Shown piece after piece: positions 23,990 to 38,725 of a DNA stretch of 64,000 bases. Source of the DNA: a virus (taxonomy: Duplodnaviria; Heunggongvirae; Uroviricota; Caudoviricetes); the IMG/VR virus record IMGVR_UViG_3300029288_000055, positions 170,764 to 234,763 of that record. The stretch is one strand, 5' to 3'. The notes beneath the pieces are model-generated. The model was not told the DNA's origin and searched no databases. It was given only the letters and a program-made list of their open reading frames with translations. Positions within the stretch are counted from its first letter, which is position 1. Every line of letters starts with the position of its first letter. The translations under genes were made by a program, and so were the position numbers.

Positions 23990-24254
23990 GAGAATATTTT
24001 ACAAATAAATACTTAATACTTTATATAAACGCTAAATTATTCATTGCTTTCAAGTATTTATGATATGAAAAGTCATTGCTTAATTCACTAATTAAGTTAG
24101 GTCTGGTAAAACAGGAATGCCTTTAAATTTTTATTGCCAAATAGTGGTTATGCAAAATTTTAAGACTTCTGAAAAATTAATAGTAATTGCACCGCATAAA
24201 AAACGGTGCAATTTTTTTAAGTGGTAATTAAGTATTTATAGAAAATTCAATATC

Positions 24255-24917
24255 ATGAAGAATAATAGTACAAAAGAAAGATTGTTTGAAGTTATTGGTA
24301 GATTAGATAAAACATTTAAACCAATTGAAGATAAAACAATTGCCACAACATATCAACTTGTCACACCCGAAAGTGCTGAAGCTGGTGATTTTTCAGATCA
24401 AGGCTGGGTAAATCAAGAAGGTGAATCAATGCTTCCTAATAAATATGAAATAGAAGAAGGTATAACAGTAGTTGATAAAGCAGTTAAATTTTTAAAAGAT
24501 AATGGTGGTACTGAACCATCATCAAGTCAATTTCATGTTGGTGTATGGTATTCTACACCAGACCCAGATAGAGATTATAAATATATTCAAACTGGTGAAG
24601 AAAAATATTATTCATATCATTTAAAAGGATTTACTCTTGAAGAAGAAGCAGAAATTTATAAAAAAATTCAAGAAAAAGAAAAAATTATACCCGAACAACA
24701 AACAAATATGCAACAATCACAAGACGTAACATATACTGATAACACATATAAAGTAATTGCACCCATACTTAGAAGAGTTAGGACAGTTGATCAATTTCCT
24801 TTAGCATTTAAAGGTTGGTTTAGCTCATTGGGATATAATCCACAATCATCACCACTTACAATAGCACAGGCAAGAATAATGGTTGAACAAGTTATGAGAG
24901 AATTAGGCTATAAATAA
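24255..24917 (+). CDS. protein with RLFE N-terminal motif
   Basis: STKERLFEVIGRLDKTFK. Confidence 0.6.
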   Translation: MKNNSTKERLFEVIGRLDKTFKPIEDKTIATTYQLVTPESAEAGDFSDQGWVNQEGESMLPNKYEIEEGITVVDKAVKFLKDNGGTEPSSSQFHVGVWYSTPDPDRDYKYIQTGEEKYYSYHLKGFTLEEEAEIYKKIQEKEKIIPEQQTNMQQSQDVTYTDNTYKVIAPILRRVRTVDQFPLAFKGWFSSLGYNPQSSPLTIAQARIMVEQVMRELGYK

Positions 24918-24953
24918 AAAATTTACTTTTTTTTGAAAATAATTGTGATTTTG

Positions 24954-24984
24954 TTTGTATTTATGATTTTAATGTATATCTTTG
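24954..24984 (+). promoter_or_regulatory. Bacteroidota primary-sigma promoter, tRNA operon A
   Basis: TTTG(24954)-N19-TATCTTTG(24977). Confidence 0.8.
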
Positions 24985-25018
24985 CGAAGAGTTTTTAATA
25001 AATGTTATTTGTAAGACG

Positions 25019-25093
25019 ATGAAAAATTTAATAAACATAGTACCACAACCCCAACAGCATCCACAAAGTTTGGAATGGGGAAACTATGCTTAA
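25019..25093 (+). CDS. leader peptide A, MKNLINIVPQPQQHPQSLEWGNYA
   Basis: Eight consecutive Pro/Gln/His codons; located between promoter and terminator. Confidence 0.85.
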   Translation: MKNLINIVPQPQQHPQSLEWGNYA

Positions 25094-25124
25094 ATTTTTC
25101 ACAGGAAAATTTTTTAGGTTAGAC

Positions 25125-25155
25125 AAACCCCATTCATATTGAGTGGGGTTTTTTT
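25125..25155 (+). terminator. attenuator terminator A
   Basis: aaaccccattca-tat-tgagtggggttt plus T-tract; 5' arm complementary to leader gaatgggg (25073-25080). Confidence 0.85.
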
Positions 25156-25180
25156 ATGGTGTTCGTTGAAATATTTTTAT

Positions 25181-25275
25181 CAGGGTGTGAGCGAGTTGGT
25201 TGAAGCTGCTGGTCTTGGAAACCAGTCACGACACAAAGGTGTTGTCGTGCGTGGGTTCGAACCCCACCACCCTGA
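25181..25275 (+). tRNA. tRNA-Pro(TGG), long variable arm
   Basis: cagggtg/caccctg acceptor, ctggt-cttggaa-accag, C1-G72 and A73. Confidence 0.8.
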
Positions 25276-25331
25276 CGTTAGAGGATTAACTATATATGAC
25301 TGTACTTGGGACTGGCAAATTAGTAATATTT

Positions 25332-25407
25332 CGAGTAGTTGGGGAGTTGGTCACCCCGCCACATTTGGGATGTGGAGAACTCGCAGGTTCGAATCCTGCC
25401 TACTCGA
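25332..25407 (+). tRNA. tRNA-Pro(TGG)
   Basis: cgagtag/ctactcg, ccaca-tttggga-tgtgg. Confidence 0.88.
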
Positions 25408-25409
25408 CT

Positions 25410-25486
25410 GTGCTAAGTGTAGATGTTGGCATTCTTCACCTGACTGTGAATCAGGGTTTCGTGGGTTCGATTCCCATTTAGCACCA
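25410..25486 (+). tRNA. tRNA-His(GTG), irregular acceptor/D junction
   Basis: cctga-ctgtgaa-tcagg; T arm gtggg-ttcgatt-cccat. Confidence 0.7.
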
Positions 25487-25519
25487 AAAAGCGTGATAAA
25501 AGCGTTTATCACGGAATTA

Positions 25520-25595
25520 CGGGATATAGTTCAGTTGGTAGAATGGGTGCTTTGGGAGCATCAGGTCGTCAGTTCGAGTCTGGCTATCCCGACCA
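25520..25595 (+). tRNA. tRNA-Pro(TGG)
   Basis: cgggata/tatcccg, ggtgc-tttggga-gcatc, encoded CCA. Confidence 0.92.
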
Positions 25596-25598
25596 CAT

Positions 25599-25675
25599 GG
25601 TGATTGTAGAGGAATTGGTAAACTCGCCTGACTGTGAATCAGGTATTTGCGGGTTCGACCCCCGTCCTTCACCCA
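25599..25675 (+). tRNA. tRNA-His(GTG)
   Basis: G-1 start, cctga-ctgtgaa-tcagg, C73. Confidence 0.85.
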
Positions 25676-25755
25676 GCATCGTTTGGCGAACGATATGAAT
25701 CGGTTTCTTAATGCCCTGATCGCAGGGTGGCGTATAGTTGAAGCATCGCCTACAT

Positions 25756-25829
25756 TGCCACATGGCGCAATTGGCTAACGCACCTGACTCTGAATCAGAA
25801 GATTGTAGGTTCGACTCCTACTGTGGCAA
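25756..25829 (+). tRNA. tRNA-Gln(CTG)
   Basis: tgccaca/tgtggca, loop ctctgaa. Confidence 0.88.
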
Positions 25830-25836
25830 CAACAAA

Positions 25837-25941
25837 TTATACCCGATCAGGACTATGAATTCATATGAAATTTACATAAAATTCTGGGTATTAATGTCTT
25901 AGCAAAAACGCTAAAATTACGATAGTCCTGATCGGGTATAA
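25837..25941. repeat. perfect 20-bp inverted repeat in a tRNA spacer
   Basis: ttatacccgatcaggactat ... atagtcctgatcgggtataa. Confidence 0.9.
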
Positions 25942-25953
25942 AATAGTATAAAC

Positions 25954-26037
25954 TGTCCTTTGGCAGAATGGTTATTGCATCGGTCTTTGAAGCCGACACC
26001 CCCAACGGGTTTGTAGGTTCGAATCCTACAGGGACAA
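25954..26037 (+). tRNA. tRNA-Gln(TTG), long variable arm
   Basis: tgtcctt/agggaca, tcggt-ctttgaa-gccga, variable stem accc/gggt. Confidence 0.82.
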
Positions 26038-26085
26038 CTTTTTTAATGTTCTTTGATATTTCATAATTATTATTACCTTTGCAAA

Positions 26086-26862
26086 ATGTATTATGTAGTT
26101 CAGGAAAATGTATTCAGGGAAGAAAATTATGACAATTTAATATTGGCATTGGATAAACTTACCTTACCATATGAAATTGTCAAAGTTAAACCCTTTATTG
26201 AAACATTCAGAATACATACCAGAAGAAAAGATATCTTTCCTTTTGGTTCATTGAAAATGGCAAGAATATCAGCGAAACGTGGCTGGCGACCCGGTTCTCA
26301 AATGAATGCTAATCACGATTATTTGGTTTATCGTGACTATTATAAAGAAAATCTTTTGAATTATGATTCACACATACAGAAATTTGGTGATGATTTTTTC
26401 AGTAAAGAAACGTTCTTTGCACGACCAACACAAGATACGAAAGTATTTACAGGAAAGGTCTTTGACATGCAAGAATGGCGAGAATTTGTGGCATATTCTC
26501 TTACTAACGGTCATAGTACCTTATTGAATATTGACACTGAAATTCAAATATGTTCAGTAAAAAAGATTCAACAAGAGATCAGGTTCTGGATTGTTAAAGG
26601 TGAAATTGTTACCGCAAGTCAATATAGACTTGGAAACAGATTGGTGCTTAGTGAAAATGTTGATCAGGCAGCTTATGACTACTGTAAGAAAATGGTTGAC
26701 ATATTTCAATTGAACGATGCTTTTGTAATGGATTTAGCTTTAACTGAAAATGGATATAAAATCATTGAATGTGGTTGCATTAATTGCGCTGGATTTTATA
26801 AAGCAAATATGCAGAAACTTTTAATGAAACTTGAAGATAGTTTTAATTGTCCTATGGTGTAA
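26086..26862 (+). CDS. ATP-grasp protein (DUF4343/R2K-like)
   Basis: FFARP..DTKVFTGKVF, EIRFWIVKGEIVTASQY, FVMDLA...KIIECGCINCAGFY. Confidence 0.75.
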   Translation: MYYVVQENVFREENYDNLILALDKLTLPYEIVKVKPFIETFRIHTRRKDIFPFGSLKMARISAKRGWRPGSQMNANHDYLVYRDYYKENLLNYDSHIQKFGDDFFSKETFFARPTQDTKVFTGKVFDMQEWREFVAYSLTNGHSTLLNIDTEIQICSVKKIQQEIRFWIVKGEIVTASQYRLGNRLVLSENVDQAAYDYCKKMVDIFQLNDAFVMDLALTENGYKIIECGCINCAGFYKANMQKLLMKLEDSFNCPMV

Positions 26863-26921
26863 TTGGTTAACACGTTGGATTTTGATTCCAAAGAGTCGGG
26901 GTTCGAGTCCCTGTAGGACAA
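26848..26921 (+). tRNA. tRNA-Gln(TTG)
   Basis: tgtccta/taggaca, ttgga-ttttgat-tccaa. Confidence 0.9.
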
Positions 26922-27078
26922 CAAATTTTTATGGTTATGAGCAAATTAAGAGTAGGTAATAAACAAAATGCAATTCTAAATGGTGAATGGGCAGGACACA
27001 TGCGCAAGTGGGGAAAATTCTTCACCGCCAAAATACGTAGAAATGTAGATAAGAAAATAATAAGAAACGAAATTAAAA

Positions 27079-27453
27079 ATGAGCTATAATCTATTCCTTG
27101 ACGATTTTCGTGAACCAGAAGATGCATTTAATCACACAAATAATCAATTATATTTAATTGGTTGGGTTGTTGTTCGTAATTATAATGAATTTGTAAAAGC
27201 AATTGAAGAAAAGGGTATTCCTGAAATGATTTCATTTGATCATGATCTTGCGGATGAACACTATGAATCTTATAAACAATATGGCGAGTATAAAGAAAAG
27301 ACTGGTTTTCATTGTGCTAAATGGTTTATCAATTATTGTATTGACAACAAAAAAGAACTTCCAGCAACAATTCTTATACATTCAATGAATCCTGCTGGAA
27401 GTGCTAATATTAAATCTTTGTTCGATACTTATAATAAATATTTCAGAATTTAA
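27079..27453 (+). CDS. cyclic-phosphate-processing receiver-like domain protein
   Basis: LFLDDFR, ISFDHDL, TGFHCAKW, IHSMNPAG. Confidence 0.7.
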   Translation: MSYNLFLDDFREPEDAFNHTNNQLYLIGWVVVRNYNEFVKAIEEKGIPEMISFDHDLADEHYESYKQYGEYKEKTGFHCAKWFINYCIDNKKELPATILIHSMNPAGSANIKSLFDTYNKYFRI

Positions 27454-28449
27454 TTATCTTCTTCCTGAACTACCATTACTACCCGAACTCCTGCCACCGC
27501 TTGAGCCAGAGCCACTTGAACTATTCGAGTTATTTGAATAATTTGAACTTCTACTGTTGCTAAAATTACTTGAACCACCTGAATTATAACTTCTTGATGG
27601 AGTGTTATTATTGCTTCTTGAGGGCACAGAATAAGTACGTGTTTGAGTACTTCTTTGTGTATTTGGTTGTGAATAAGTACGTGTTTGTGTAGTTGTTTCC
27701 ACTCTTCTATTAGTTGTAACACCTATTCTACTATTATTATATTGTGGACGAGTATTTAAACGTGGATTTTCATAAGAAGGTGTATATGTTCTCCTATTTT
27801 CTTGATAAATTGCTCTATTTTGTGGACTGGTAGTACGTTTTTCTTGTGGTACAACTCTTTGTATATTGTTATTATATGTGCTTGATAATGTTGATGGTCT
27901 TTCTCTACGACCATATCTACCACTCCAATTATGATTATTACTATATCTCCAAGGACTCCAGTAATTATATCCAAAATAAAAATTATTGTAATACCAAGGA
28001 CTGTACCAGTTTCTCATAAATCTAAATTCCCAATACCAATCATAGCTATCATACATCCAATAATTCCCAAAATAAAAATTGTTATAAAAATAATAAGGAT
28101 TGTCATACATCCAATAATTAAATCCATTATGATAAAATCTTCCTATATTATATGAATAAAAGAAAGGGTCATAATTATATTCATATATAATTTTAATTTC
28201 AGAATTGTACTTTATAAGAGTATCTACAACCTCATTAACATCATTTATTTTTTGTTTTTTAATCTTTTTAGCATCTTTACTTGGTTGATAATAAAGGTCA
28301 TCATATTCTGGTTTATCAGATACAACTGTTTGATTATTATTTATTGAATCTTCTCTTGCTTGCCAATACTTCTCATAATTGGACTTTTTTTGTGCCGATA
28401 AAATACTTGTTAAAAGTATAAGGCAAATAATTATTAGTAATCTTTTCAT
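27454..28449 (-). CDS. exported Tyr/Trp-rich protein with Ser/Gly/Arg-rich tail
   Basis: Signal peptide MKRLLIIICLILLTSILSA; low-complexity C-terminus. Confidence 0.6.
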   Translation of the reverse strand: MKRLLIIICLILLTSILSAQKKSNYEKYWQAREDSINNNQTVVSDKPEYDDLYYQPSKDAKKIKKQKINDVNEVVDTLIKYNSEIKIIYEYNYDPFFYSYNIGRFYHNGFNYWMYDNPYYFYNNFYFGNYWMYDSYDWYWEFRFMRNWYSPWYYNNFYFGYNYWSPWRYSNNHNWSGRYGRRERPSTLSSTYNNNIQRVVPQEKRTTSPQNRAIYQENRRTYTPSYENPRLNTRPQYNNSRIGVTTNRRVETTTQTRTYSQPNTQRSTQTRTYSVPSRSNNNTPSRSYNSGGSSNFSNSRSSNYSNNSNSSSGSGSSGGRSSGSNGSSGRR

Positions 28450-28541
28450 AGTTTCATATATTATATTGCAATAGTATAAATAGCAATATCCGTACCAAAG
28501 TTTTTTTAACTTTGCTGTGTATTTATTATAAATTTCACATT

Positions 28542-28925
28542 ATGAGCAAACGTGCCACAAAAGAAAGACTTTTCGAAGTTACTGGTAGACTTGATAAAAC
28601 ATTTAAAATAATAAATGAAGAAGTTGCACCTGAAAATATTGCGGTTTCATCACTTGGTGGTGTTGTTGAAAAAACTGATCTTAATGAAGCATCATCAAAA
28701 TCACCAATTAATTTATATGTATATTTTGCATATAATTTTCCAAGCAATTTTATTGAAAAAACATGGGCAAATAACCCAAACATAATGGAACATTTGAAAA
28801 ACAAGTTCAATGGATACTATACCAAATATGGTGCTGAAGGGGTAATGAACAGATTTTATGTTGAATTAGATATCGAGAATCAAAGAATTTTAGAAGATTG
28901 GATATTACATAATTATAGCGGATAA
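28542..28925 (+). CDS. protein with RLFE N-terminal motif
   Basis: ATKERLFEVTGRLDKTFKIINEE. Confidence 0.6.
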   Translation: MSKRATKERLFEVTGRLDKTFKIINEEVAPENIAVSSLGGVVEKTDLNEASSKSPINLYVYFAYNFPSNFIEKTWANNPNIMEHLKNKFNGYYTKYGAEGVMNRFYVELDIENQRILEDWILHNYSG

Positions 28926-28945
28926 TAAAAATAAAATAATTAACT

Positions 28946-29275
28946 ATGAAAACAACAGATAACAAACAAAGACTTTTCGAAGTCTTGGGTAAAATAGACC
29001 CAACATTTAAACCAAGTGCACAACTTCTTACCGAATGGAACTTTGATAAGAAAAAAGGTGAAAACAAAGAAGAAGATAAAGACGAAGATGAAAAAGACAG
29101 CAAGAAAAAATTCAACTTCGAAAAAAAAGAAGATAAAGAATCCAAAAAACATGAGGAAGTTGAAAGTCCTGAAGAAGAAAAAGAAGAACATGAAGATAAA
29201 AAAGAATTAAAAGAAGCCGATGCACCTGCAGCAAAAAAAATACCTGTTAATGCAATAGCTAAAGTTGGTAAATAA
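28946..29275 (+). CDS. highly charged protein with RLFE N-terminal motif
   Basis: DNKQRLFEVLGKIDPTFK...LLTE followed by a K/E/D-rich tract. Confidence 0.6.
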   Translation: MKTTDNKQRLFEVLGKIDPTFKPSAQLLTEWNFDKKKGENKEEDKDEDEKDSKKKFNFEKKEDKESKKHEEVESPEEEKEEHEDKKELKEADAPAAKKIPVNAIAKVGK

Positions 29276-29325
29276 GATAGAATTATTCTAAATAACATTA
29301 TTTTGTGAATTTTTTTACGAAAAGA

Positions 29326-29355
29326 TTTGTATTTATGAAAAATTGATTATCTTTG
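29326..29355 (+). promoter_or_regulatory. Bacteroidota primary-sigma promoter, tRNA operon B
   Basis: TTTG(29326)-N18-TATCTTTG(29348). Confidence 0.75.
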
Positions 29356-29389
29356 CAAAGATATTTAAAACAAATTATGATTTAAAACG

Positions 29390-29482
29390 ATGAAAAATTT
29401 ATTCGACATATTGGTAGCAGTCCTCATGGTGGATGTCCTATTATGGGCAGCCGAAGAGGATGATCTATGCGTAGTCGGGTAA
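29390..29482 (+). CDS. leader peptide B, MKNLFDILVAVLMVDVLLWAAEEDDLCVVG
   Basis: Residues 8-26 are all L/V/A/M/D/W/E. Confidence 0.85.
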   Translation: MKNLFDILVAVLMVDVLLWAAEEDDLCVVG

Positions 29483-29519
29483 TACTTTGAATATTACAAC
29501 CTCCTTTCTTATAAAAAAG

Positions 29520-29559
29520 AAACCCGACTACCCTAAATTTAGTCGGGTTTTTTGTTTTT
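29520..29559 (+). terminator. attenuator terminator B
   Basis: aaacccgacta/tagtcgggttt plus T-tract; 5' arm complementary to leader gtagtcgggt (29471-29480). Confidence 0.88.
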
Positions 29560-29570
29560 AGTGGTTGTAG

Positions 29571-29582
29571 GTTCTTTGACAT
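29571..29582 (+). promoter_or_regulatory. boxA-like antitermination element
   Basis: GTTCTTTGACAT just after the terminator; near-identical copy at 55626. Confidence 0.55.
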
Positions 29583-29593
29583 GTTGGAATTTT

Positions 29594-29672
29594 GGTGCTG
29601 GGGTCTGCTTGGTGTGGACGCATGACTGTCACTCATGATATCAGGAGGGTTCGATTCCCTTCAGCACCGCCA
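29594..29672 (+). tRNA. tRNA-Asp(GTC)
   Basis: ggtgctg/cagcacc, catga-ctgtcac-tcatg, G73, CCA. Confidence 0.88.
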
Positions 29673-29781
29673 TTCTCAACCGAAAGCAAGTAGGTTACTG
29701 GTGAAGCGGAGATCGTGACTCCAACCTTGATGGTTCGTTCCTGAGAGGGCATGGTTGCAAAAAACAGTTTGGGGATATTTT

Positions 29782-29854
29782 CGAGGCTGTGGTGTAATGG
29801 CTAACATACCTGACTGTCACTCAGGTGTCTGGGGTTCGAGTCCCCCGGTCTCGG
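29782..29854 (+). tRNA. tRNA-Asp(GTC), apparent 8/4 fold
   Basis: cgaggctg/cggtctcg acceptor, gggg/cccc T stem, cctga-ctgtcac-tcagg. Confidence 0.8.
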
Positions 29855-30031
29855 CACATTTTTACTGCCAAAGCAGTAAAAAATAAAAATTTGAGGTAAA
29901 AAGTATCGTTAATATCACTTTTTTATTTACTTTTACCGTTTTGGCAGTAAAAAACGACTATTTGTTAAGAAATAATAATTTGTTTCAAATAAAGTGCATT
30001 ATTTTGCACTAAATAAATTAATAAAGTATTT

Positions 30032-30634
30032 ATGAATATGAATGAAAATATTATATATGGTTTAAAAGACCCAAGGACTGATGAATATAAGTATGTTGGT
30101 AAATCAATAAAAGGAATCGAAAGAGCAAACTCACACTTAACACATTCTCATAATCCATTGGTTAATGAGTGGATTAATGAACTTAAAATGGATAGTTATG
30201 TTCCACTTGTTGTTATTTTGGAAAATGTTTCTGATTGGACACAATTGATCGATAAAGAAAAATATTGGGTCGGGAAATTAACCGATGAAGAACACGATTT
30301 ATTTAACATTTTAATTACAGATTCATATAACAATACGCTGGATTCCTATAATAAGAAATTGATACAACAAATAAAAGATAGGGAAAAAGTGTTAAATGAA
30401 AAGTTAAATAAATCATTAATGCAATTCGGTAGTGAATCAGATGTTGGTGATTTAATAAAAAGAAGACGTAAAACTCTAAAAGTAACACAACAACAACTTG
30501 CAGATATTTCTGGGGTTGGGTTACGAACAATAAAACTAATTGAATTAAACAAATCAAATGCGACTATTAATACTTTAATGAAAATATTTGATACTTTAGG
30601 TTATGAACTTTTCATTAACTTAAAAACAAAATAA
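30032..30634 (+). CDS. GIY-YIG-like endonuclease fused to an XRE-type HTH
   Basis: IIYGLKDPRTDEYKYVGKS...R..H...EKYW; C-terminal TQQQLADISGVGLRTIKLIE. Confidence 0.7.
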   Translation: MNMNENIIYGLKDPRTDEYKYVGKSIKGIERANSHLTHSHNPLVNEWINELKMDSYVPLVVILENVSDWTQLIDKEKYWVGKLTDEEHDLFNILITDSYNNTLDSYNKKLIQQIKDREKVLNEKLNKSLMQFGSESDVGDLIKRRRKTLKVTQQQLADISGVGLRTIKLIELNKSNATINTLMKIFDTLGYELFINLKTK

Positions 30635-30637
30635 TAT

Positions 30638-30720
30638 GCTGCGTTATACAAGCGACTAAAGTAGACAGACCTTCAATCTGTCATCGAAAGATTTCGTGGG
30701 TTTGAATCCCACACGCAGTA
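30638..30720 (+). tRNA. tRNA-Glu(TTC), C33, long variable arm
   Basis: gctgcgt/acgcagt, acaga-ccttcaa-tctgt, variant T loop tttgaat. Confidence 0.7.
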
Positions 30721-30817
30721 CGATGTTGAGGTGGTATTACACGGGGAAAAGAAAGTCCCTGCTGATAATCTAAAAAATGTGGACAGCATGTGGGTATAAA
30801 TCCCGCCAACTACACCT

Positions 30818-30889
30818 GCTCGATTCTTCTAATGGAAAGGAAAGCTGACTCTCAATCAGTTAACGGCAGTTCGATTCTGCCATCGAGTA
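30818..30889 (+). tRNA. tRNA-Glu(CTC)
   Basis: gctcgat/atcgagt, gctga-ctctcaa-tcagt. Confidence 0.85.
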
Positions 30890-30894
30890 CAAAT

Positions 30895-30969
30895 GCTCGG
30901 TTCGTCTAAGGGTTAGGATGTAAGACCTTCAATCTTAAAATACGGGTTCGATTCCCGTACCGAGTACCA
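30895..30969 (+). tRNA. tRNA-Glu(TTC), C33
   Basis: gctcggt/accgagt, taaga-ccttcaa-tctta, CCA. Confidence 0.85.
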
Positions 30970-31084
30970 AAATGGGGCATAAAAACCCCAGATGTTAAGT
31001 AAATGGGGAAAATATGCCCCATACTACAAAAATGTAGTATATTATCAACAAAAATGCCAGTTATGATGATAATATACAACAAAT

Positions 31085-31173
31085 GCACTTTTAGCTCAGT
31101 CTGGTTCAGAGCGCAACCCTTACAAGGTTGAGGCGAATAGTTCACGGGGGTTCGAATCCCTCAAAGTGCACCA
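31085..31173 (+). tRNA. tRNA-Val(TAC), long variable region
   Basis: gcacttt/aaagtgc, caacc-cttacaa-ggttg, CCA. Confidence 0.85.
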
Positions 31174-31175
31174 AT

Positions 31176-31251
31176 GCTCTTTTAGCTCAGTTGGGTCAGT
31201 AGCGTCTGTTTTACAAGCAGAAGGTCGTAGGTTCGAAGCCTACAGGGAGCA
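31176..31251 (+). tRNA. tRNA-Val(TAC)
   Basis: gctcttt/agggagc, tctgt-tttacaa-gcaga. Confidence 0.87.
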
Positions 31252-31363
31252 CAAAGGTCCGCACACAGGGGCGGACCTTAAATATAGGTAAAATAACCGA
31301 TATAATGCATTTATCGGTTGTAGAGGCGATAAAGAGTATTTATCGTGTGTAGAATGCATAAAC

Positions 31364-31445
31364 GTCCATATGTTGTAATTGGTAGCCAAGCTGGTCTAAG
31401 AAGCCAGTGCCGTAAGGCGTGTCGGTTCGACTCCGACTATGGACA
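31364..31445 (+). tRNA. tRNA-Leu(AAG)
   Basis: gtccata/tatggac, ctggt-ctaagaa-gccag, variable arm gcc-gtaa-ggc, A73. Confidence 0.85.
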
Positions 31446-31454
31446 CAACAAAAC

Positions 31455-31529
31455 GCAGGTGTAGCCGAATGGTCAAGAGGCAGCAGTTTTAGAAACTGAA
31501 ATTTGCGGGTTCGACTCCCGCCACCTGTA
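31455..31529 (+). tRNA. tRNA-Leu(TAG), short variable loop
   Basis: gcaggtg/cacctgt, cagt-tttagaa-actg. Confidence 0.8.
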
Positions 31530-31594
31530 CAAACGTTCTCTTTGAGTAGTAATATTCATTAAATTTGGTAGCAATATCAAGTAGGGAACACCAA

Positions 31595-31670
31595 GCGGAT
31601 GTGCTGGAACTGGTATACGGGTTGGCTTCAGACACCAATATTAATGAGGGTTCGAGTCCCTTCATCCGCA
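31595..31670 (+). tRNA. tRNA-Leu(CAG), short variable loop
   Basis: gcggatg/catccgc, Leu-type D loop, ttggc-ttcagac-accaa. Confidence 0.75.
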
Positions 31671-31748
31671 CCGACCTTATTCTGGATAACGAAGCAAATA
31701 GTTCCAGACACTCAGTCCTGAAGTCATGGTTCAGGAGTAAGGACAACT

Positions 31749-31821
31749 GCCCCGTTGACGTAATCGGCAACCGTATCAGTCTTAAAAGCTGAGTTTCACA
31801 GTTCGAATCTGTGACGGGGTA
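31749..31821 (+). tRNA. tRNA-Leu(TAA), short variable loop
   Basis: gccccgt/acggggt, tcagt-cttaaaa-gctga. Confidence 0.8.
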
Positions 31822-31956
31822 CAAAGGTGAATGCTGTTACTTATTTGCAGTAGTAACACCACCTGTGCCGAATAACTTGTAGAGAGGAAAGTAGTACTTT
31901 TCAATACTTTGTGGATTGCAAATATACATTGGTTGAGTTATTAAAAAGGCACACAC

Positions 31957-32026
31957 GGGCGTAAGAGTAATTCTCTGTAAGTCGGGTTGATCACCGAAGT
32001 AGGTTAAAATCCTACTACGTTCACCA
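31957..32026 (+). pseudogene. degenerate tRNA-like element
   Basis: gggcgta/tacgttc acceptor plus ACCA; gtagg-ttaaaat-cctac T-like arm; irregular anticodon arm. Confidence 0.45.
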
Positions 32027-32027
32027 C

Positions 32028-32101
32028 GGGGTCGTGGCTCAATTGGCTAAAGCATCTGCCTTGCACGCAGAGGACTGTGGGTTCGAGTCCCACCGACTCC
32101 A
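32028..32101 (+). tRNA. tRNA-Ala(TGC)
   Basis: G3:U70, tctgc-cttgcac-gcaga. Confidence 0.92.
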
Positions 32102-32138
32102 CAAACAAAGGTCCGCAAATATTTGCGGACCTTTACTT

Positions 32139-32212
32139 GGGGCATTCGCTTAGTTGGCTAAAGCATCTGTTTTGCAAGCAGAAGATCGTGGGTTCAACTC
32201 CCACATGCTCCA
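32139..32212 (+). tRNA. tRNA-Ala(TGC)
   Basis: G3:U70, tctgt-tttgcaa-gcaga. Confidence 0.9.
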
Positions 32213-32329
32213 CACAATCCATAATAATAAGGCAAGTAACAAATCTTGTGTTCGTGGGAACAACATGTCCGTGCGTGCGCAGGGATAAATTGGTTGATGC
32301 TCCAATCGTGCCCACGAAGGGTTGCACTT

Positions 32330-32416
32330 GTAGGTGTATTCCGTAATGGCGAAATTGGTTATGTCATCCATGTAACAAGGGTTGGAATGTTAGAGGTTCG
32401 AGTCCTTTCATCTACA
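32330..32416 (+). pseudogene. degenerate tRNA-like element
   Basis: gtaggtg/catctac acceptor, agagg-ttcgagt-ccttt T arm, anticodon unclear. Confidence 0.45.
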
Positions 32417-32422
32417 CAAACA

Positions 32423-32501
32423 ACGGATTTAACATAGTGGCAAGTGTTGCACCTTAAGTCCTGCGTGGCTGGTAACGGTGGTTCGATTCCATCAATCTGT
32501 T
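32423..32501 (+). pseudogene. degenerate tRNA-like element
   Basis: acggatt/aatctgt acceptor, D stem acat/gtgt, T arm ggtgg-ttcgatt-ccatc, weak anticodon stem. Confidence 0.5.
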
Positions 32502-32510
32502 GTTAAAAAT

Positions 32511-32593
32511 ACGCAAGTTGCCGAGTGGTTAAAGGCACGGGTCTCCAAAACCCGCAGAGAAATCTTTCGTGGGTCCAAATCCTACCTTGCGTG
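32511..32593 (+). tRNA. tRNA-Trp(CCA), long variable arm
   Basis: acgcaag/cttgcgt, cgggt-ctccaaa-acccg, G73. Confidence 0.75.
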
Positions 32594-32604
32594 CAAATTA
32601 AAAT

Positions 32605-32676
32605 GCGTCTGTCGTCTAATGGCTAAGACAACGGCTTCCAAACCCGTGAATAAGGTTTCGATTACTTTCAGACGTG
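32605..32676 (+). tRNA. tRNA-Trp(CCA)
   Basis: gcgtctg/cagacgt, loop ttccaaa, G73. Confidence 0.78.
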
Positions 32677-32727
32677 CTAAAATCAGATAATTATGAAAAC
32701 GCAAAAAGCAATGTGCATCCTAAAAGG

Positions 32728-33144
32728 ATGCTTACCAGAGAAGAAAAAAGACGTAGAAGACATAGTGATGAATTCAACAGAATTTTCACATTTTTCTTAA
32801 AGTCTTATCGCTACAAAATACTTGATTTTTCAGGTATTGAAGTGAAAACAAATATGGACATTAATGAAGACGATGGTAAAGTCTGTTTCAAAAATTTTGA
32901 CAACGGTGAATACAAAAGCATGAATTCAATGCCAACCAGACATCCAAACATATTGAAGGGTGTAATTGTTGGAAAAAAATCATGGGGTTTACATGTAAAG
33001 ATGTGGTCTGAAGGTATCTCCGAAGGTACATTTACCAAAAGAGAAATCTTACAACAATTTATAGATAATAAGATTGAAATACCAGAGCCATTTCTAATTG
33101 ATCTTGATAACACAATATTAAAGAAATTTCGAATGAAGCAATAG
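32728..33144 (+). CDS. hypothetical protein
   Basis: ORF; ATG chosen downstream of the tRNA. Confidence 0.45.
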   Translation: MLTREEKRRRRHSDEFNRIFTFFLKSYRYKILDFSGIEVKTNMDINEDDGKVCFKNFDNGEYKSMNSMPTRHPNILKGVIVGKKSWGLHVKMWSEGISEGTFTKREILQQFIDNKIEIPEPFLIDLDNTILKKFRMKQ

Positions 33145-33613
33145 TAAAAATCGCAGGTATGTACTGCAGGTTGGCGTTCTATCCAAAAGAACTAAAAGCA
33201 CAATTACCACTGAGGGCAGTTAATTCTGTACCCAAGAGCAATATCAGTTAGCAGTACACTATTGTTTCAAAAAATTAGAATATTTTGTAACTTTTTGGTT
33301 TTTTCTTCGTATAAAGAGTATTAATTTAATAAGAAAGGAGCAAGTCTTCAAAACACGAATTAAATACAGAGGATGTTGGTGGTGGAAAATTGTACATTAC
33401 AATTATTTTCATAAGAAACTTTTTAAAAATTTTTATGTACAAAAGAAAAAGAAACCATTTACCAATAGAGAAATTAAAAAATATGAACTATATAAAAAAT
33501 TCGATGATTTAATTACATTGAGACGAGTGGATTGGTTAAGAAAGTTTATATTTCTCATTGAGCCATAAATTTTCAGTATTTATTTGTAACATTTTTAATT
33601 AAAAATTATAATA

Positions 33614-34006
33614 ATGAAAAAAATATTATCATTACTTTTATTACTGGTATCCTTGACAGCTTTTTCACAGAGACATCAACACGAAAAATACTATCAGGAT
33701 AAGTTTGCTGAATTAATTTATGGAAGAACAGAAGTTGTTCTTGATGACAGGGCACGTGTTGATATTGTAACTGATACATTTGCAATTGAAGTTGATTTTG
33801 CACCTAAATGGGCAGAAAGTATCGGTCAATCTTTGTATTATGCTGAAAAACTTCACAAAAAAGCAGGTGTTTTATTGATAATAAAAGGAAATGACGATCA
33901 AAGATATACTGAAAGATTAATTACTATCGCAAAAAAATATAATATTACTATTTGGTTTATAGACTATACATCTGAAAAATGGAAGACGAAAAAATTTATA
34001 TTTTAA
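33614..34006 (+). CDS. signal-peptide protein with PD-(D/E)XK-like fold
   Basis: MKKILSLLLLLVSLTAFSQ; RVDIVTDTFAIEVDFAPKWAESIGQSLYYA. Confidence 0.55.
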   Translation: MKKILSLLLLLVSLTAFSQRHQHEKYYQDKFAELIYGRTEVVLDDRARVDIVTDTFAIEVDFAPKWAESIGQSLYYAEKLHKKAGVLLIIKGNDDQRYTERLITIAKKYNITIWFIDYTSEKWKTKKFIF

Positions 34007-34047
34007 TTGTTGTTTTTCTCATTGTAATATATTAAATTTGAGGCATT

Positions 34048-34761
34048 ATGTATATCATTGCAAAGAAAAAGGATTATTATGATGGTGTCGTTGGCACAAT
34101 GGGTGTTGACAAAACATTGGTCTATGAGCGTGAAACTCAAGAATTTGAAGGTGATGACATACCCGTAATATTTGAAAGAAAAAGAGGTTATTGGGGTATG
34201 AATCGTACAAAAACTCCTTTTCATCAAATGAATTATCATCAAATAAAAAAAGAATTTCGAAATGTTTGTGACGAGCACTCATATTTCATTATTGGATTTT
34301 GTGGCAAACTCTACATTGGTTGGAAACTTTACAGAGTAATAAATTCAAATGATGAAGTCAGCACAGAATTCACATATGATAATGAATATATGAAGAAAAT
34401 CTTAGAAGATAAAAGCTGGGATGGTACTCTTAGTGATAGCATTAACTACGTTCAGTCATTTAATGCACTTCAGATTTTTAGGGATTTAAAAAGTCCAGCT
34501 TTTGTGTATGACAGCGATTACGGTAGAACAAAACGTAATAATAATCATCATTCGAAATTCATTATCAATCCATTGTTGAAAAACTATGAATTTTTCAAGA
34601 TGTTTGACAGTTTTCAAGCATTTCAGGAAGTTTCGATGTTTATAGGTGGAGTACTTGGTAAAGGTGAAAAAGAAATAACTGAAGTTGCTGATAAATATAA
34701 GATTACACAACATGGTTTTAATAAATGGTCATTCAGAAAAGAACCAAAAATAAAGAAATAA
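34048..34761 (+). CDS. hypothetical phage protein
   Basis: 237 aa ORF, KDYYD...HGFNKWSFRK. Confidence 0.55.
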   Translation: MYIIAKKKDYYDGVVGTMGVDKTLVYERETQEFEGDDIPVIFERKRGYWGMNRTKTPFHQMNYHQIKKEFRNVCDEHSYFIIGFCGKLYIGWKLYRVINSNDEVSTEFTYDNEYMKKILEDKSWDGTLSDSINYVQSFNALQIFRDLKSPAFVYDSDYGRTKRNNNHHSKFIINPLLKNYEFFKMFDSFQAFQEVSMFIGGVLGKGEKEITEVADKYKITQHGFNKWSFRKEPKIKK

Positions 34762-34762
34762 T

Positions 34763-36155
34763 TATGAGAAAAGAAAATAGAGATGCATTAATTGAGGCAT
34801 TGCAAACACATTTGGATACCAGAGATAAAAGGTTTATGTTTTTGAAAATAGAATTTAAAGATTTTGTTTCTCGAATAAACCTTGAAGGTTCTGCACATGA
34901 TACTGCTTGGAATATTTATTCTGAATTTGAAAAGAATCAAATGTTGGGTTCTTTAATGGCATGTATAAACCATGTTTTCGATACTGAATTATATTTGGAT
35001 ATTATTAAAAAACGAAACGTATGAAAGTAAAAATTGGTGATAAAATCGTTGATGCTGAAAATGAACCAATTATGTTGATTTTCAGTGATGAAAAAGAAAG
35101 AAAAGCAGTAGCTAAAAACATAAAAGATATGGCAACTCAAGCATTAAAATACTGTACATTTCCAAATGAAATGCTCGCAGCAGATGTGGTAAAATTTATG
35201 AAAACAGAATGAAAAAATCAATTGCAGAAAAATATAAAGACAGAAAGGTTAATCCAAAGTACTATCAGACAATTAAAATAAGTGGTGGTATAGAAGGCGA
35301 ACCAAAAACACTAACCAGAAAAGAGTTTCAAGAGGGTAAACAGGGTATAGTTTGGGCAGACAATGAAACAGGTAAACTCGTGTTTGAAGATGAAGAAAAA
35401 CCAATTGGATTAATAGAAGGCATAAGGCAATATGAAGCCAACAAGCCACCAGTAAGACTTGAATCAGAACTTAATAAGGCATATAAAGGACAAAACAATA
35501 TGACAATATATGGTGGCTTTGAGTTCATTGAAAAATTAAGAAAATTGTTACCAAAGAAATATTTTAAATAACATGACAAATTCAGGTGAAGATATGAAAA
35601 AGATGCTGGAAAGAATACAGCGTGAACAAACAGAAAGAATGAAAAAAATTAATGAAAGGGTTTGTGGTTCAGTAAAAAATCCTTACGTACCCACTACAAC
35701 AGCTTCTTTTCTCAATCCACAAAGAAATTCAAATGATATGTTTGAGCAACTGGCAAAAGAAAATAAAAAATTAACAGAAGAAAAAATTAAATTGAACCTT
35801 AAAATATTACAATTGGAAAAAGAAAAATATGAACTTATGGAAAATTACGCAAAACTTAAGTCATATATTGAAGCCAATAAAGGTCAATTTTGGACTGATT
35901 TAAATAAAAACATTAAAAGTATTTATCAAAGAATAATTAACTGGTTTAATACCTGACAGTATGAAAAGGTTTAATGTAGCAAAATTTGAAATCGAAGAAC
36001 GATTGGCACATATAGATTATACTGGTGATATTTCTGATATTGGCAACGAAATTGGTATTATTATTGGTAAATATATTGACAAAGAAAACACTGTTGAAGA
36101 TTTTATTCGTGGTTTAAAACACGGAATATCATTAACTGATGGCACACACGCTTAA
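34763..36155 (+). other. run of five small hypothetical CDSs (34763, 35021, 35209, 35573, 35961)
   Basis: Tightly coupled or overlapping ORFs on the + strand. Confidence 0.55.
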
Positions 36156-36219
36156 GGTCAAAATTTAAATAAACATTAAATAATTAATTTTTTAATGTTT
36201 GTGGTTCTTTAAAAATATC

Positions 36220-36583
36220 GGGGATGACTTGGCTTTGACTGAATGGTCAGACTGGTAACGTAAGCAAGTAGTAGTTGAATCAGACTACTTTAAAAAGGTT
36301 CAAAACAATAGATGAAGACATAATGTCTATCCCAACTTCTCTCACGAGAGGTAAAAGCGTTTTTGTAAGAAGTGCAGAACTTCAAATCGCTGCGTAAGCA
36401 AGGGACACGAAAAAATTTGCACAAAAGTTCCTAACTTGAAGGGAAGGTAAACAAATTCAAGACAGTTTTGTAGTTATTCTGGAATAATACAACTAATATT
36501 TCGCTGGCTTAGAAAAACCAGATAAACTTGTAGAAAACTTATTACTCGCATTCAAGACGGGGGTTCAACTCCCCCCATCTCCA
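36220..36583 (+). ncRNA. ssrA: tmRNA
   Basis: 5' GGGGATGACTTGGCTTTGAC, 3' GACGGGGGTTCAACTCCCCCCATCTCCA, G3:U70, internal tag ORF ending ...LQIAA-stop at 36397. Confidence 0.92.
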
Positions 36584-36598
36584 CTAATTTGAATTATT

Positions 36599-37021
36599 AT
36601 GGAAAATTATAATTGGGAAAAAACTGGTATGTTAGAAGGATTAACGGGTAATACTCGTGAAACCGTTATAAAACTTTTTAAAGAAATTGACTTCAAATCA
36701 ATACCAGAAATTAAAGATTCTGTTGGTGTAGACACACTCATTTGTCCAGTAATAAGACGAATAGTTTCAGTAATCACGCCTGATAATTTACTGGTTCAAA
36801 ACAGTATCATTAAAGATCATTCAAGAGAAATTACAGAAGAAGACGTGCTTCCATTGATTGATGTAAAAGAAATAACAGAACTATTGATTGAATATGTTCG
36901 TGTTTTTATTCCATACGCAGAAAAATATTTACCAGACCTTGACGCACAAGCGGAAATGTGCTTATTGTTTTGTGATAATTATGTAATGAAACTGATTGGT
37001 AGAACTGGAAAATGGAAATAA
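36599..37021 (+). CDS. small paralog of the major capsid N-terminal region
   Basis: NWEKTGMLEGLTGNTRE...CPVIRRI versus MCP RWEKIGLLEGLEGNVKE...FPVIRRV. Confidence 0.7.
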   Translation: MENYNWEKTGMLEGLTGNTRETVIKLFKEIDFKSIPEIKDSVGVDTLICPVIRRIVSVITPDNLLVQNSIIKDHSREITEEDVLPLIDVKEITELLIEYVRVFIPYAEKYLPDLDAQAEMCLLFCDNYVMKLIGRTGKWK

Positions 37022-37023
37022 TT

Positions 37024-37454
37024 ATGAAAGAGAATCAATATCAAAAATCAGAAAGATTACTTAAAAAATGGTTTGATTCTGATGATGCTAAAATCTATTT
37101 TGAAAAAGAACGAAAAAACAAGAGTTTAAGCTCAAACGTTTTGCTCGTTTTGAAAAGTGGCTGGAAAATAATGATTTTGAAGCACTAATGTATCGTTTAA
37201 TTCTTGAACATGGTGAAAATTATCGTGAAAAATGTTATCATAAAGGTTATGAACCATACCCAAACAATAAATTATCATTTCTTATTGATTATGTATCAGA
37301 AAGTCTTGAACCAATAAGTGTACCACAACTTGAAAATATGTTTGGAACAAGTATTTGGTTTTTTAAAGGATATTATTTTAGGCTTATGTACGGACAGGGA
37401 ACTGTTTTTGATTTATATAATGGTGGCGATTTTAAACATTTATTAAGCGCATGA
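37024..37454 (+). CDS. hypothetical protein, apparently split by a -1 frameshift near 37113-37118
   Basis: Frame starting at 37024 continues plausibly into the frame of ORF 37188 if one A is added to the A6 tract. Confidence 0.35.
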
Positions 37455-37759: not shown

Positions 37760-37921
37760 CAACAACAGAAAAAATTATTACCGTAGTACTTGAAGAAGTA
37801 AATGGCTACACTAAAGAAGAAGCAGAAAAATATGCAAAAGATTGTGAAGGAAGTATTACGTGGGAAAGAATTGATGCAATTGTAAATAAAGCAATTAAGG
37901 AAGCAAAAAAGAAATAACAAT

Positions 37922-38007: not shown

Positions 38008-38029
38008 CTATTTATATAAAAATAAAATC

Positions 38030-38685: not shown

Positions 38686-38725
38686 CAATTGAATAATTAT
38701 GAGTATTTATTTAAAACTGTAAACT

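Follow-up and report, generated by a model that had tools for sequence, protein, structure and literature searches.

Transcription attenuators of the trp and his type answer to the level of charged tRNA, and in hisR mutants with reduced tRNA-His the his operon is derepressed. In such systems, the stalled ribosome is blind to whether the amino acid or the tRNA is missing. The trpL, hisL, pheL, thrL, ilvGMEDA and pheST leaders have a short promoter-proximal ORF with codons for the regulated amino acid, followed by alternative 1:2, 2:3 and 3:4 pairings and an intrinsic terminator, with the position of the ribosome deciding between them; in the ilv and thr leaders, several amino acids are sensed by one leader. 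Phage tRNA genes are usually explained by differences in codon usage or as substitutes for host tRNAs that defence nucleases or host shut-off have eliminated. To our knowledge, the control of their expression has hardly been addressed so far, and a literature search found no description of leader-peptide control, in the style of the trp operon, acting on tRNA genes.

Here we describe a locus, unit A, in a 64,000-nucleotide stretch of the genome of an uncultured giant Caudoviricetes phage (hereafter the window; positions 170,764 to 234,763 of IMG/VR record IMGVR_UViG_3300029288_000055) that resembles these leaders in its short promoter-proximal ORF, its alternative pairings, its intrinsic terminator and its codons for several amino acids, and in which the position of a ribosome would likewise decide the outcome. 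We propose, with a probability of roughly 0.8, that unit A is a ribosome-mediated (leader-peptide) transcription attenuator gating a Pro/His/Gln tRNA operon of the phage, and that these tRNAs are probably made only while ribosomes decode Pro, Gln and His codons slowly.

Anatomy of unit A and its tRNA array

Across 24954-26038, unit A consists of a promoter, a leader ORF, a terminator and seven tRNA genes (3 Pro, 2 His and 2 Gln), in that order (Table 1); the first protein gene after the terminator starts only at 26128, behind the seven tRNA genes. An upstream TTTG/TTG plus TAnnTTTG box lies 27-85 nt 5' of the leader ATG in 22 of 22 homologues and in units B, C and D, three sibling units within the window. 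No Shine-Dalgarno sequence is present upstream of the leader ATG; in Bacteroidota, initiation generally proceeds without one. The terminator has a 12-bp stem followed by T7 and is the top-scoring plus-strand terminator match within 24000-40000. In the leader hairpin, the P0 stem encloses a pairing of 25036-25041 with 25083-25088 as well as the 1:2 pairing. A preliminary description had reported the Pro/Gln/His codon run, the complementarity of segment 2 to the terminator arm and the 10-nt distance from segment 2 to the stop codon, and all three are borne out by the sequence at the positions in Table 1.

Table 1. Features of unit A and its surroundings, in coordinates of the window
Feature	Position	Strand	Description	Basis
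Promoter, Bacteroidota type	24954-24984	+	TTTG at -33 (24954-24957), 19-nt spacer, TATCTTTG at -7 (24977-24984)	
Leader ORF	25019-25093	+	24 codons, ATG to TAA, peptide MKNLINIVPQPQQHPQSLEWGNYA	ORF reading of sequence
Leader hairpin	25020-25101	+	P0 pairs start-codon region 25020-25031 with stop-codon region 25090-25101; -19.0 kcal/mol	
Regulatory run	25043-25066	+	CCA CAA CCC CAA CAG CAT CCA CAA (PQPQQHPQ)	
Segment 1	25049-25053	+	CCCCA; partner is UGGGG of segment 2 (25076-25080) when leader is untranslated	MFE folds
Segment 2	25073-25080	+	GAATGGGG, antiterminator 5' strand; 10 nt from its end to stop codon (starts 25091)	
Intrinsic terminator	25125-25156	+	5' arm 25125-25136, loop TAT, 3' arm 25140-25151, T-tract to 25156	
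Segment 3	25128-25135	+	CCCCATTC, inside terminator 5' arm; perfect complement of segment 2	
tRNA-Pro(UGG)	25181-25276	+		ARAGORN, Infernal
tRNA-Pro(UGG)	25332-25408	+		ARAGORN, Infernal
tRNA-His(GUG)	25410-25485	+		ARAGORN, Infernal
tRNA-Pro(UGG)	25520-25595	+		ARAGORN, Infernal
tRNA-His(GUG)	25600-25674	+		ARAGORN, Infernal
tRNA-Gln(CUG)	25756-25830	+		ARAGORN, Infernal
tRNA-Gln(UUG)	25954-26038	+		ARAGORN, Infernal
Promoter of R2K ATP-grasp ORF	26052-26081	+	TTTG-N18-TACCTTTG	
Third tRNA-Gln(UUG)	26848-26922	+	Behind R2K ATP-grasp ORF (26128-26862)	

Between 25181 and 26922, ARAGORN and Infernal/Rfam identify 3 Pro(UGG), 2 His(GUG), 1 Gln(CUG) and 2 Gln(UUG) tRNA genes (Infernal/Rfam bit scores of 35.9-69.5 for the eight) and no other isotype, as had been claimed for this array. 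The array tRNAs decode seven of the eight codons of the run by strict wobble, and CCC requires extended reading by U34. The third tRNA-Gln gene stands behind an ATP-grasp ORF with a promoter of its own and is therefore probably not governed solely by attenuator A; it probably forms a separate or read-through unit. Hence, the original picture of an attenuator standing ahead of the whole array fits seven tRNAs and probably has to be relaxed for the eighth. Genes for a T4 Rnl1-type RNA ligase, an R2K ATP-grasp protein and cREC are interspersed with the tRNA arrays, a neighbourhood that fits a genome guarding its tRNA supply.

An Rfam cmscan of 24000-33000 at E<=1 returned only tRNA and chance matches, with no T-box (RF00230) and no known leader family; the best match at 24990-25160, IsrM, reached 15.6 bits against a cut-off of 376 bits and is not credible.

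Predicted response to ribosome position

Unit A was folded with a 30-nt ribosome footprint masked at chosen A-site positions. In these masked folds, an A site at the first or a middle codon of the run lets segment 2 form 8 bp with the terminator 5' arm while the 3' arm has yet to be made; an A site at the last run codon or at the stop puts segment 2 under the footprint, and the terminator alone forms. This reproduces the earlier proposal that a ribosome at the stop would mask segment 2 and one stalled early would not. For a stall on the final two codons of the run, the folds predict that the ribosome itself would cover segment 2. When no ribosome is present, the leader hairpin holds segment 2 in the fold and the terminator forms. 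In silico, segment 2 thus behaves as an antiterminator strand, in that its pairing excludes the terminator and its exposure is set by the position of the ribosome.

The leader hairpin is calculated at -19.0 kcal/mol, the antiterminator structure at -20.0 kcal/mol and the terminator hairpin at -16.7 kcal/mol. Full-length equilibrium folds of unit A favour the terminator whatever the state of the ribosome, so that antitermination must be kinetic, as in trp, where the terminator is stable alone and the antiterminator wins only by forming first. In units C and D, the stop codon lies 21-24 nt beyond segment 2, and in this simple model a footprint at the stop therefore leaves the segment uncovered. 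In these two units, a ribosome at the stop may block the antiterminator by steric exclusion or through close coupling.

From this anatomy, we infer a translated leader, coupled transcription and translation, and regulation in the direction of read-through when charged tRNA is limiting. Host RNA polymerase would initiate at the Bacteroidota-type promoter and transcribe the 24-codon leader. If the PQPQQHPQ run is decoded without delay, the ribosome would reach the GAATGGGG region and the stop 10 nt further on and cover segment 2 while the terminator is being made, and transcription would stop short of the tRNA genes. A leader without a ribosome would fold on itself, hiding GAATGGGG, and termination would again be expected. 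A shortage of charged tRNA-Pro, tRNA-Gln or tRNA-His would stall the ribosome on the first five or six codons of the run, opening the leader hairpin and freeing GAATGGGG to pair with the emerging CCCCATTC; this 2:3 pairing would preclude the terminator and allow the polymerase to continue into the seven tRNA genes. Since the new tRNAs would relieve the stall, the loop would act as negative feedback on decoding capacity for Pro, Gln and His.

Conservation and the match between leaders and arrays

We scanned IMG/VR with a 7-codon pattern, obtaining 119 loci, mostly unrelated coding matches, which were then filtered by tRNA context. At least 27 IMG/VR loci carry a QPQQHPQ-type leader immediately 5' of Pro/His/Gln arrays on the same strand, the conservation of the run among these matches being partly built in because the run belonged to the search pattern. 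In an alignment of 22 unit A homologues, the leader ORF is retained throughout. Leaders of three loci (L005, L123 and L024) have in-frame 6-nt deletions, and in L134 two compensating 1-nt indels alter the peptide, with GAATGGG intact in the RNA and the TAA unmoved. The eight core 2:3 pairs are retained in 20-22 of the 22 homologues. In L021, a U-A pair of 2:3 has become C-G with a matching change in 3:4, and the peptide has changed from EWG to ERG. Covariation in the A family is thin because segments 2 and 3 are almost invariant, with a single double change in the 2:3 pairing that does not exceed the shuffle control. The terminator is paired in 97.9% of cases across the 22 homologues, with three compensatory pairs, and P0 is paired in 83% of cells, with three pairs altered on both sides. 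Conservation of the 1:2 pairing is only approximate, since CCCCA is displaced by two codons in most homologues. The arrays of L123, L069 and L096 contain no detected tRNA-His, though their leaders retain CAT, and L005 has a complete unit B leader ahead of an array holding Asp tRNAs only.

Searching the GenBank phage collection for near-identical sequences gave no close relative; the matches there were limited to the ATP-grasp gene (LR756500, LR756501 and LR756503) and scattered tRNA matches. Eight further units were found in three distant huge-phage records, two from Al-Shayeb et al. 2020 and one IMG/VR contig. Their leaders differ from that of unit A, yet each agrees with its own tRNA set, the leader ORFs in these phages having been chosen partly by eye. 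The four units of the window together cover 19 of the 20 amino acids; unit D is up to 8-valent, and units in the other phages are 6- to 7-valent. An HTH_3 protein gene lies within array B (30032-30634).

The leader runs are rare in six-frame space. A P/H/Q-only run of eight residues occurs at three loci among 725,480 six-frame windows of the 363-kb contig, and the runs of the four units have 3, 2, 2 and 5 loci. An 8-nt complement to the terminator arm of unit A was attained in 9 of 2000 shuffles. When the contig (362,763 bp, both strands, 55 terminators) was scanned by architecture only, for terminators whose 5' arm has a complement of 7 nt or longer within a small ATG ORF, exactly units A-D were recovered, each directly before a tRNA array. 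Over all 12 units from the four phages, 10-11 have a perfect 7-12 nt complement of the terminator 5' arm inside the leader ORF or at its end, and the complements in ten units were each matched by at most 19 of 2000 shuffles. All isotypes of each array are present in its own leader in these 12 units, and the matrix of leader-against-array scores has a diagonal sum of 145 (39 ± 13 when permuted), with none of 200,000 permutations as good as the real pairing. As a negative control, fragments upstream of 25 tRNA arrays from the remaining contigs in the bin were scored, and the best for each array reached no more than 5; the same score is 8 for unit A, 16 for B and 23 for D, and just 4 for C. The rarity of the runs, the permutation test and the negative control lead us to reject chance composition as the source of the match between leaders and arrays.

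Alternative readings, significance and known systems

The attenuator could be real and the tRNAs nonetheless come mainly from a second start site, or from a processing signal, located past the terminator (the GTTCTTTGAYRT motif), with the leader unit tuning only early transcription by the host polymerase or releasing a small RNA or peptide with a role of its own. The motif, conserved across many arrays, follows the terminator and precedes the first tRNA in unit B (29571) and in five other loci (L001, L002, L003, L005 and L008), is degenerate in unit A, and is also found ahead of leaderless arrays in L009 and L018; moreover, its exact matches in LR756501 and G001 (1.4 Mb) lie inside tRNA arrays in six of six cases. 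If it is a promoter, the attenuator would be bypassed. However, in several arrays just 8-25 nt separate the end of the motif from the 5' end of the mature tRNA, which leaves too little room for a -33/-7 promoter to serve that tRNA, its letters at 26048 and 49042 are merely the -33 TTTG of ordinary TAnnTTTG promoters, and a second start leaves unaccounted for the way in which leader composition tracks the arrays. We therefore regard this reading as unlikely. The idea of GTTCTTTGA as a general phage promoter was rejected, there being just 11 exact copies in the 363-kb contig.

We consider it quite unlikely that the ribosome-based switch reports amino-acid starvation or general translation stress rather than tRNA supply, the isotype match merely mirroring which amino acids are sensed. 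A stalled ribosome does not distinguish an absent amino acid from an absent tRNA, and an inducible tRNA array in Anabaena responds to general translational stress (PMC8421152). Extra tRNA is useless without its amino acid, however, and the precise match between leader and array in 12 units is therefore hard to explain as selected by starvation. In addition, the leaders sample synonymous codons that suit the available anticodons, as with Gln, for which both codons and both anticodons are present. That the small ORF is untranslated and belongs to a T-box-like switch binding protein or tRNA, or to a terminated small transcript, with the codon match due to chance or composition, is highly improbable: its presumed start codon does lack a Shine-Dalgarno sequence, but Bacteroidota generally start without one, reading frame and stop codon stay in place through the in-frame indels and paired frameshifts, the match in composition exceeds chance by far, and no T-box or other Rfam cis-regulatory family matched even at E<=1. 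We also rejected nascent-peptide arrest of the proline type as a general mechanism, because the sibling leaders are very different in composition and unit A has no Pro-Pro.

If leader-peptide attenuation does operate here, leader codons that mirror the downstream tRNAs would constitute a direct, self-correcting gauge of decoding capacity, and textbook attenuation would reach RNA genes as targets, phages as carriers and an unusually high valency. The sorting of tRNA genes into isotype blocks in these genomes would find an explanation as well, units B, C and D being proposed to do likewise for the remaining isotype groups. More tentatively, and with somewhat poorer than even odds in our estimation, the four attenuators may jointly form an isotype-resolved homeostat of tRNA supply that acts as a counter-defence sensor. 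Once a given tRNA is depleted, whether by an anticodon nuclease of the host, by host shut-off or by a loss of host tRNA that the phage induces, a stall on the matching leader would turn on only the array that replaces the depleted isotype group, in concert with the RNA-repair genes nearby (T4 Rnl1-type ligase, R2K ATP-grasp and cREC). The units are modular, each with a different leader and a different terminator stem, as well as compact, and they are found in many uncultured huge phages; thus, the idea is directly testable with reporters, and a codon-specific sensor of tRNA availability is a possible use.

Eight or more units with the architecture of unit A occur in the tRNA-rich huge phages of the Al-Shayeb et al. 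2020 group. Phages of the Mahaphage clade (LR756500 and LR756501) are related, having the R2K ATP-grasp gene in common and the same kind of tRNA arrays. They have a predicted Bacteroidetes host, and their tRNAs are listed without mention of leaders or attenuation (PMC7162821). Anabaena sp. PCC 7120 carries a long, inducible tRNA array, the trn operon, which is horizontally mobile, serves as a spare and stays off until translation is impaired (PMC8421152). As with the phage arrays, RNA-repair genes occur near arrays of this type; unlike the phage arrays, the trn operon is not divided into isotype-matched units. It is controlled by a protein repressor, TrcR (PMC10272220), and neither paper on this array (PMC8421152, PMC10272220) mentions an attenuator, leader or terminator. 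T-box riboswitches, as we propose for unit A, read the charging of tRNA and choose between terminator and antiterminator, but they bind one uncharged tRNA directly, involve no ribosome or ORF, and control synthetase and amino-acid genes. In the scan of 24000-33000, nothing resembled the Rfam leader families (His, Trp, Thr and Leu) in sequence, and we know of no classical leader with a valency as high as that of unit D. What sets unit A apart from the classical attenuators is its targets, which are tRNA genes rather than genes for biosynthesis, transport or synthetases, and its location in a phage.

Layout of the Pro/His/Gln unit

Unit A consists of a promoter, a short leader ORF, an intrinsic terminator and an array of Pro, His and Gln tRNA genes (see table), and had been described in a preliminary description as an attenuator. 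The underlying observation is confirmed: on rereading the sequence all coordinates of the unit were correct, segment 2 of the leader complements segment 3 of the terminator with a gap of 10 nt to the stop, and ARAGORN and Infernal concur that the run precedes three Pro(UGG), two His(GUG), one Gln(CUG) and two Gln(UUG) tRNAs and no other isotype. The array extent requires one amendment. The tRNA set at 25181-26922 is right, but the third Gln tRNA sits behind the R2K ATP-grasp gene, which has its own promoter at 26052-26081, so the safest delimitation of the attenuated unit is the block of seven tRNAs at 25181-26038. Of the eight run codons, seven are decoded via strict wobble by the array's own tRNAs; both Gln codons occur in the run, and both Gln anticodons in the array.

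The first tRNA-Pro(UGG) (25181-25276) has a length of 96 nt and carries an inserted hairpin of 22-24 nt in its variable region, a class II-like long arm that is unusual for tRNA-Pro. This form is also found in relatives (IMG/VR contigs L003, 9100-9195; L005, 8055-8150; L096, 1614-1708), and other tRNAs of the window are over-long (e.g. Gln 85 nt, Val 89, Glu 84, Trp 84, Thr 88). Between the Gln(CUG) and Gln(UUG) genes lies a perfect 20-nt inverted repeat (arms 25837-25856 and 25922-25941, 65 nt apart), which may represent either a small element that inserted there or a large hairpin involved in processing.

Features of the tRNA-bearing region and of units in other phages (window positions unless another record is named)
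Feature	Position or record	Strand	Description
Promoter of leader A	24954-24984		canonical Bacteroidota type, TTTG-N19-TATCTTTG
Leader ORF A	25019-25093	+	reads MKNLINIVPQPQQHPQSLEWGNYA
P/Q/H run	25043-25066	+	CCA CAA CCC CAA CAG CAT CCA CAA
Segment 2	25073-25080	+	GAATGGGG; ends 10 nt short of TAA at 25091
Segment 3	25128-25135	+	CCCCATTC; within 5' arm of 12-bp hairpin, then seven T
Unit A	25019		detector output
Unit B	29390		leader MKNLFDILVAVLMVDVLLWAAEEDDLCVVG; Asp, Glu, Val, Leu, Ala, Trp tRNAs
Unit C	44081		leader with YYYGKKSYKK; Lys, Tyr tRNAs
Unit D	55288		leader with STSTSSRNGNGIFCSIFTGRNN; Thr, Cys, Asn, Ile, Ser, Phe, Gly, Arg tRNAs
R2K ATP-grasp gene	26128-26862		among tRNA arrays
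cREC_REC cyclic-phosphate receiver domain gene	27079-27453		among tRNA arrays
T4 Rnl1-type RNA ligase gene	41529-42614		just upstream of Lys/Tyr array
tRNA-like gene	32422-32502		four-base anticodon taag by ARAGORN; Infernal 33.7 bits
Phage tmRNA	36220-36584
tRNA with CTA anticodon	contig 237313-237385		possible amber suppressor, just beyond window
GTTCTTTGAYRT motif	26048-26059; 29571-29582; 55626-55637; L001 ~8245; L003 ~8995; L008; L009; L018
Distant unit	LR756501		leader TPAPAVAFRRGTGTGTGTCVPAG; Arg, Thr, Val, Ala, Gly, Pro tRNAs
Distant unit	LR756501		leader INMIQEQMQQIQ; Met, Gln, Ile, Glu tRNAs
Distant unit	LR756501		leader SKHSKHFSSSSKWF; Trp, His, Phe, Lys, Ser tRNAs
Distant unit	LR756501		Leu-rich leader; five Leu tRNAs
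Distant unit	LR756500		leader SVHIIHIWEHLLEEV; His, Glu, Val, Trp tRNAs
Distant unit	LR756500		leader TLSTYPLGQAQTLGTPPITG; Ala, Leu, Pro, Tyr, Gln, Gly, Thr tRNAs
Distant unit	676-kb IMG/VR contig		leader LLCNLYNMYLNNLEND; Leu, Asp, Asn, Met, Glu, Tyr tRNAs
Distant unit	676-kb IMG/VR contig		leader TTYTTATTAPQQGAGQGRTAQPRG; Thr, Gly, Ala, Gln, Pro, Arg tRNAs

Predicted folding around a masked ribosome

We folded unit A with a 30-nt ribosome footprint masked. Without a ribosome, the predicted leader hairpin (-19.0 kcal/mol) joins the start region to the stop region and pairs CCCCA of the run with UGGGG of segment 2; segment 3 remains unpaired, and the terminator forms. When the A site is at the first or a middle codon of the run, the 8-bp antiterminator pairing between segments 2 and 3 is predicted to arise before the 3' arm of the terminator exists. 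When it is at the last run codon or at the stop, the footprint covers segment 2, and the terminator is predicted to form. These folds bear out the earlier proposal that a terminating ribosome would mask segment 2 and that one stalled early would leave it free. The antiterminator structure, including a nested hairpin, has a calculated energy of -20.0 kcal/mol and the terminator hairpin one of -16.7; at equilibrium the terminator state prevails, and therefore the switch would have to be kinetic, as is the classical trp attenuator. The attenuator interpretation is supported by sequence and folding models, and we consider it probable, at roughly four chances in five, that unit A works as an attenuator that responds to the decoding of Pro, Gln and His codons. 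In units C and D, segment 2 and the stop are 21-24 nt apart, a distance at which simple masking by a ribosome at the stop fails to account for termination.

Recurrence of the layout and conservation of the pairing

An eight-residue run of P, H and Q alone occurs at three loci among 725,480 six-frame windows of the contig, leader A being one of them. When the upstream sequence was shuffled 2000 times, 9 shuffles reached an 8-nt complement of the terminator arm. A detector blind to composition and tRNA position, which required a strong terminator and a complement of its 5' arm of at least 7 nt, 15-90 nt upstream and inside a 14-60-codon ATG ORF, returned exactly four units (A, B, C and D) from the 55 terminators on both strands of the full contig. 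All four have a TAnnTTTG promoter 42-49 nt upstream of the ATG.

The spacer of the A-family promoters contains TTTGTATTTATGATTTTAATG between the -33 and -7 boxes (24955-24976; 22 homologues), conserved far above what is expected of a spacer; GTATTTAT is repeated in the promoters of units B (29331-29345) and C (44022-44034), a recurrence that hints at an extra recognition element. A second small K/Y-rich ORF (44274-44327, MKNRYKKAYFMKNVYYP) is located between terminator C and the first Lys tRNA, in a stretch (44240-44370) where ATGAAAAAC occurs four times and TTGCATAAAAAC twice; this may be another sensor in tandem or a signal built on repeats. The conserved motif GTTCTTTGAYRT, often with TTGAAAT after it, recurs between terminator and first tRNA or shortly ahead of tRNAs, and its six exact 16-nt matches in 1.4 Mb (LR756501 and the 676-kb IMG/VR contig) all fall inside tRNA arrays; candidate roles are RNA processing, signalling to the polymerase and a second start site.

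Eight more units of the same layout, with different leaders and terminator stems, were found in two huge-phage records and the 676-kb contig; these leaders were picked partly by eye, although nearly always a single small ORF ends just before the terminator. When the leaders and arrays of the 12 units were scored all against all, the diagonal summed to 145; permuted pairings gave 39 +/- 13, and none of 200,000 permutations was as high. Each leader contains every isotype of its own array (12/12), and in 10-11 of the 12 units the leader ORF carries, internally or at its end, a perfect 7-12-nt complement of the terminator 5' arm. For 25 tRNA arrays on the bin's remaining contigs, which served as a negative control, no score exceeded 5.

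Leader A is kept in four IMG/VR contigs reached via the ATP-grasp protein, and a codon-pattern scan found 27 IMG/VR loci at which a QPQQHPQ-type leader immediately precedes a Pro/His/Gln array of the same orientation. The alignment comprises 22 distinct versions, in which the run itself was fixed by the search pattern. Core pairs between segments 2 and 3 are retained in 20-22 of the 22, and terminator A is 97.9% paired with three compensatory pairs; covariation within the family is thin, segments 2 and 3 being nearly invariant. In one homologue (L021), U->C in segment 2 and A->G in segment 3, with a matching 3' arm change, turn EWG into ERG and leave both alternative helices intact. Another (L134) has a 1-nt deletion ahead of segment 2 and a 1-nt insertion behind it, altering the peptide but neither the GAATGGG RNA nor the position of TAA. 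In a third (L044), a 1-nt insertion makes the stop a TGA overlapping segment 2, which a terminating ribosome would still cover. Unit B shows a three-way change, with leader CAGTCGGG and terminator CCCGACTG...CCAGTCGGG in L005 and leader UAGUCGGG and terminator CCCGACUA...UAGUCGGG in the window. Because these variants keep the pairing or the stop, they point to selection on pairing and translation end point, not on the C-terminal peptide. His tRNA was not detected in the arrays of three relatives, yet CAT is kept in their leaders, and L005 retains the full B leader ahead of an array with Asp tRNAs only.

The start-codon region of leader A (25020-25031) also pairs with the stop-codon region (25090-25101), with compensatory changes in homologues such as L104; across the 22 versions this helix is 83% paired, and three of its pairs are compensatory. 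After transcription of the whole leader it would occlude the start site, perhaps restricting the gauge to the first ribosome.

Genomic setting and relation to known systems

The window spans positions 170764-234763 of the contig (362,763 bp, 30.5% GC), which carries 55 tRNA genes and one tmRNA (56 ARAGORN calls), including one tRNA with a CTA anticodon; the window holds 52 tRNAs and the tmRNA, 53/53 on the + strand and isotype-sorted. RNA-repair-type genes (R2K ATP-grasp, cREC_REC, T4 Rnl1-type ligase) alternate with its arrays. Among the 21 A-leader homologues listed, the stop is TAA in 18, TGA in three and TAG in none. The contig was binned as a 'prokaryote genome' of 1.27 Mb, whose other contigs (C2-C38) are mostly 33-43% GC and carry ordinary dispersed tRNA genes; the bin is therefore a mixture of phage and one or more cells. 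GenBank phage matches beyond tRNA length were confined to 462-kb and 735-kb huge phages (Al-Shayeb et al. 2020), whose clade has Bacteroidetes as predicted host (PMC7162821).

Unit A matched none of the Rfam leader and T-box models, and a full-text literature search returned no account of tRNA genes under leader-peptide control. Among published systems, the closest functional analogue found is the tRNA array of Anabaena, which is induced by translational stress (PMC8421152) and is under the control of the repressor TrcR (PMC10272220); neither paper mentions an attenuator. From sequence and folding, unit A resembles classical leader-peptide attenuators in every structural feature that could be assessed here, and it would sense several amino acids, as do the multivalent leaders of ilv and thr. 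The differences lie in the targets, which are tRNA genes, in the phage setting and in a valency of up to eight amino acids. Unit A would thus extend a known mechanism, leader-peptide attenuation, to phage tRNA genes.
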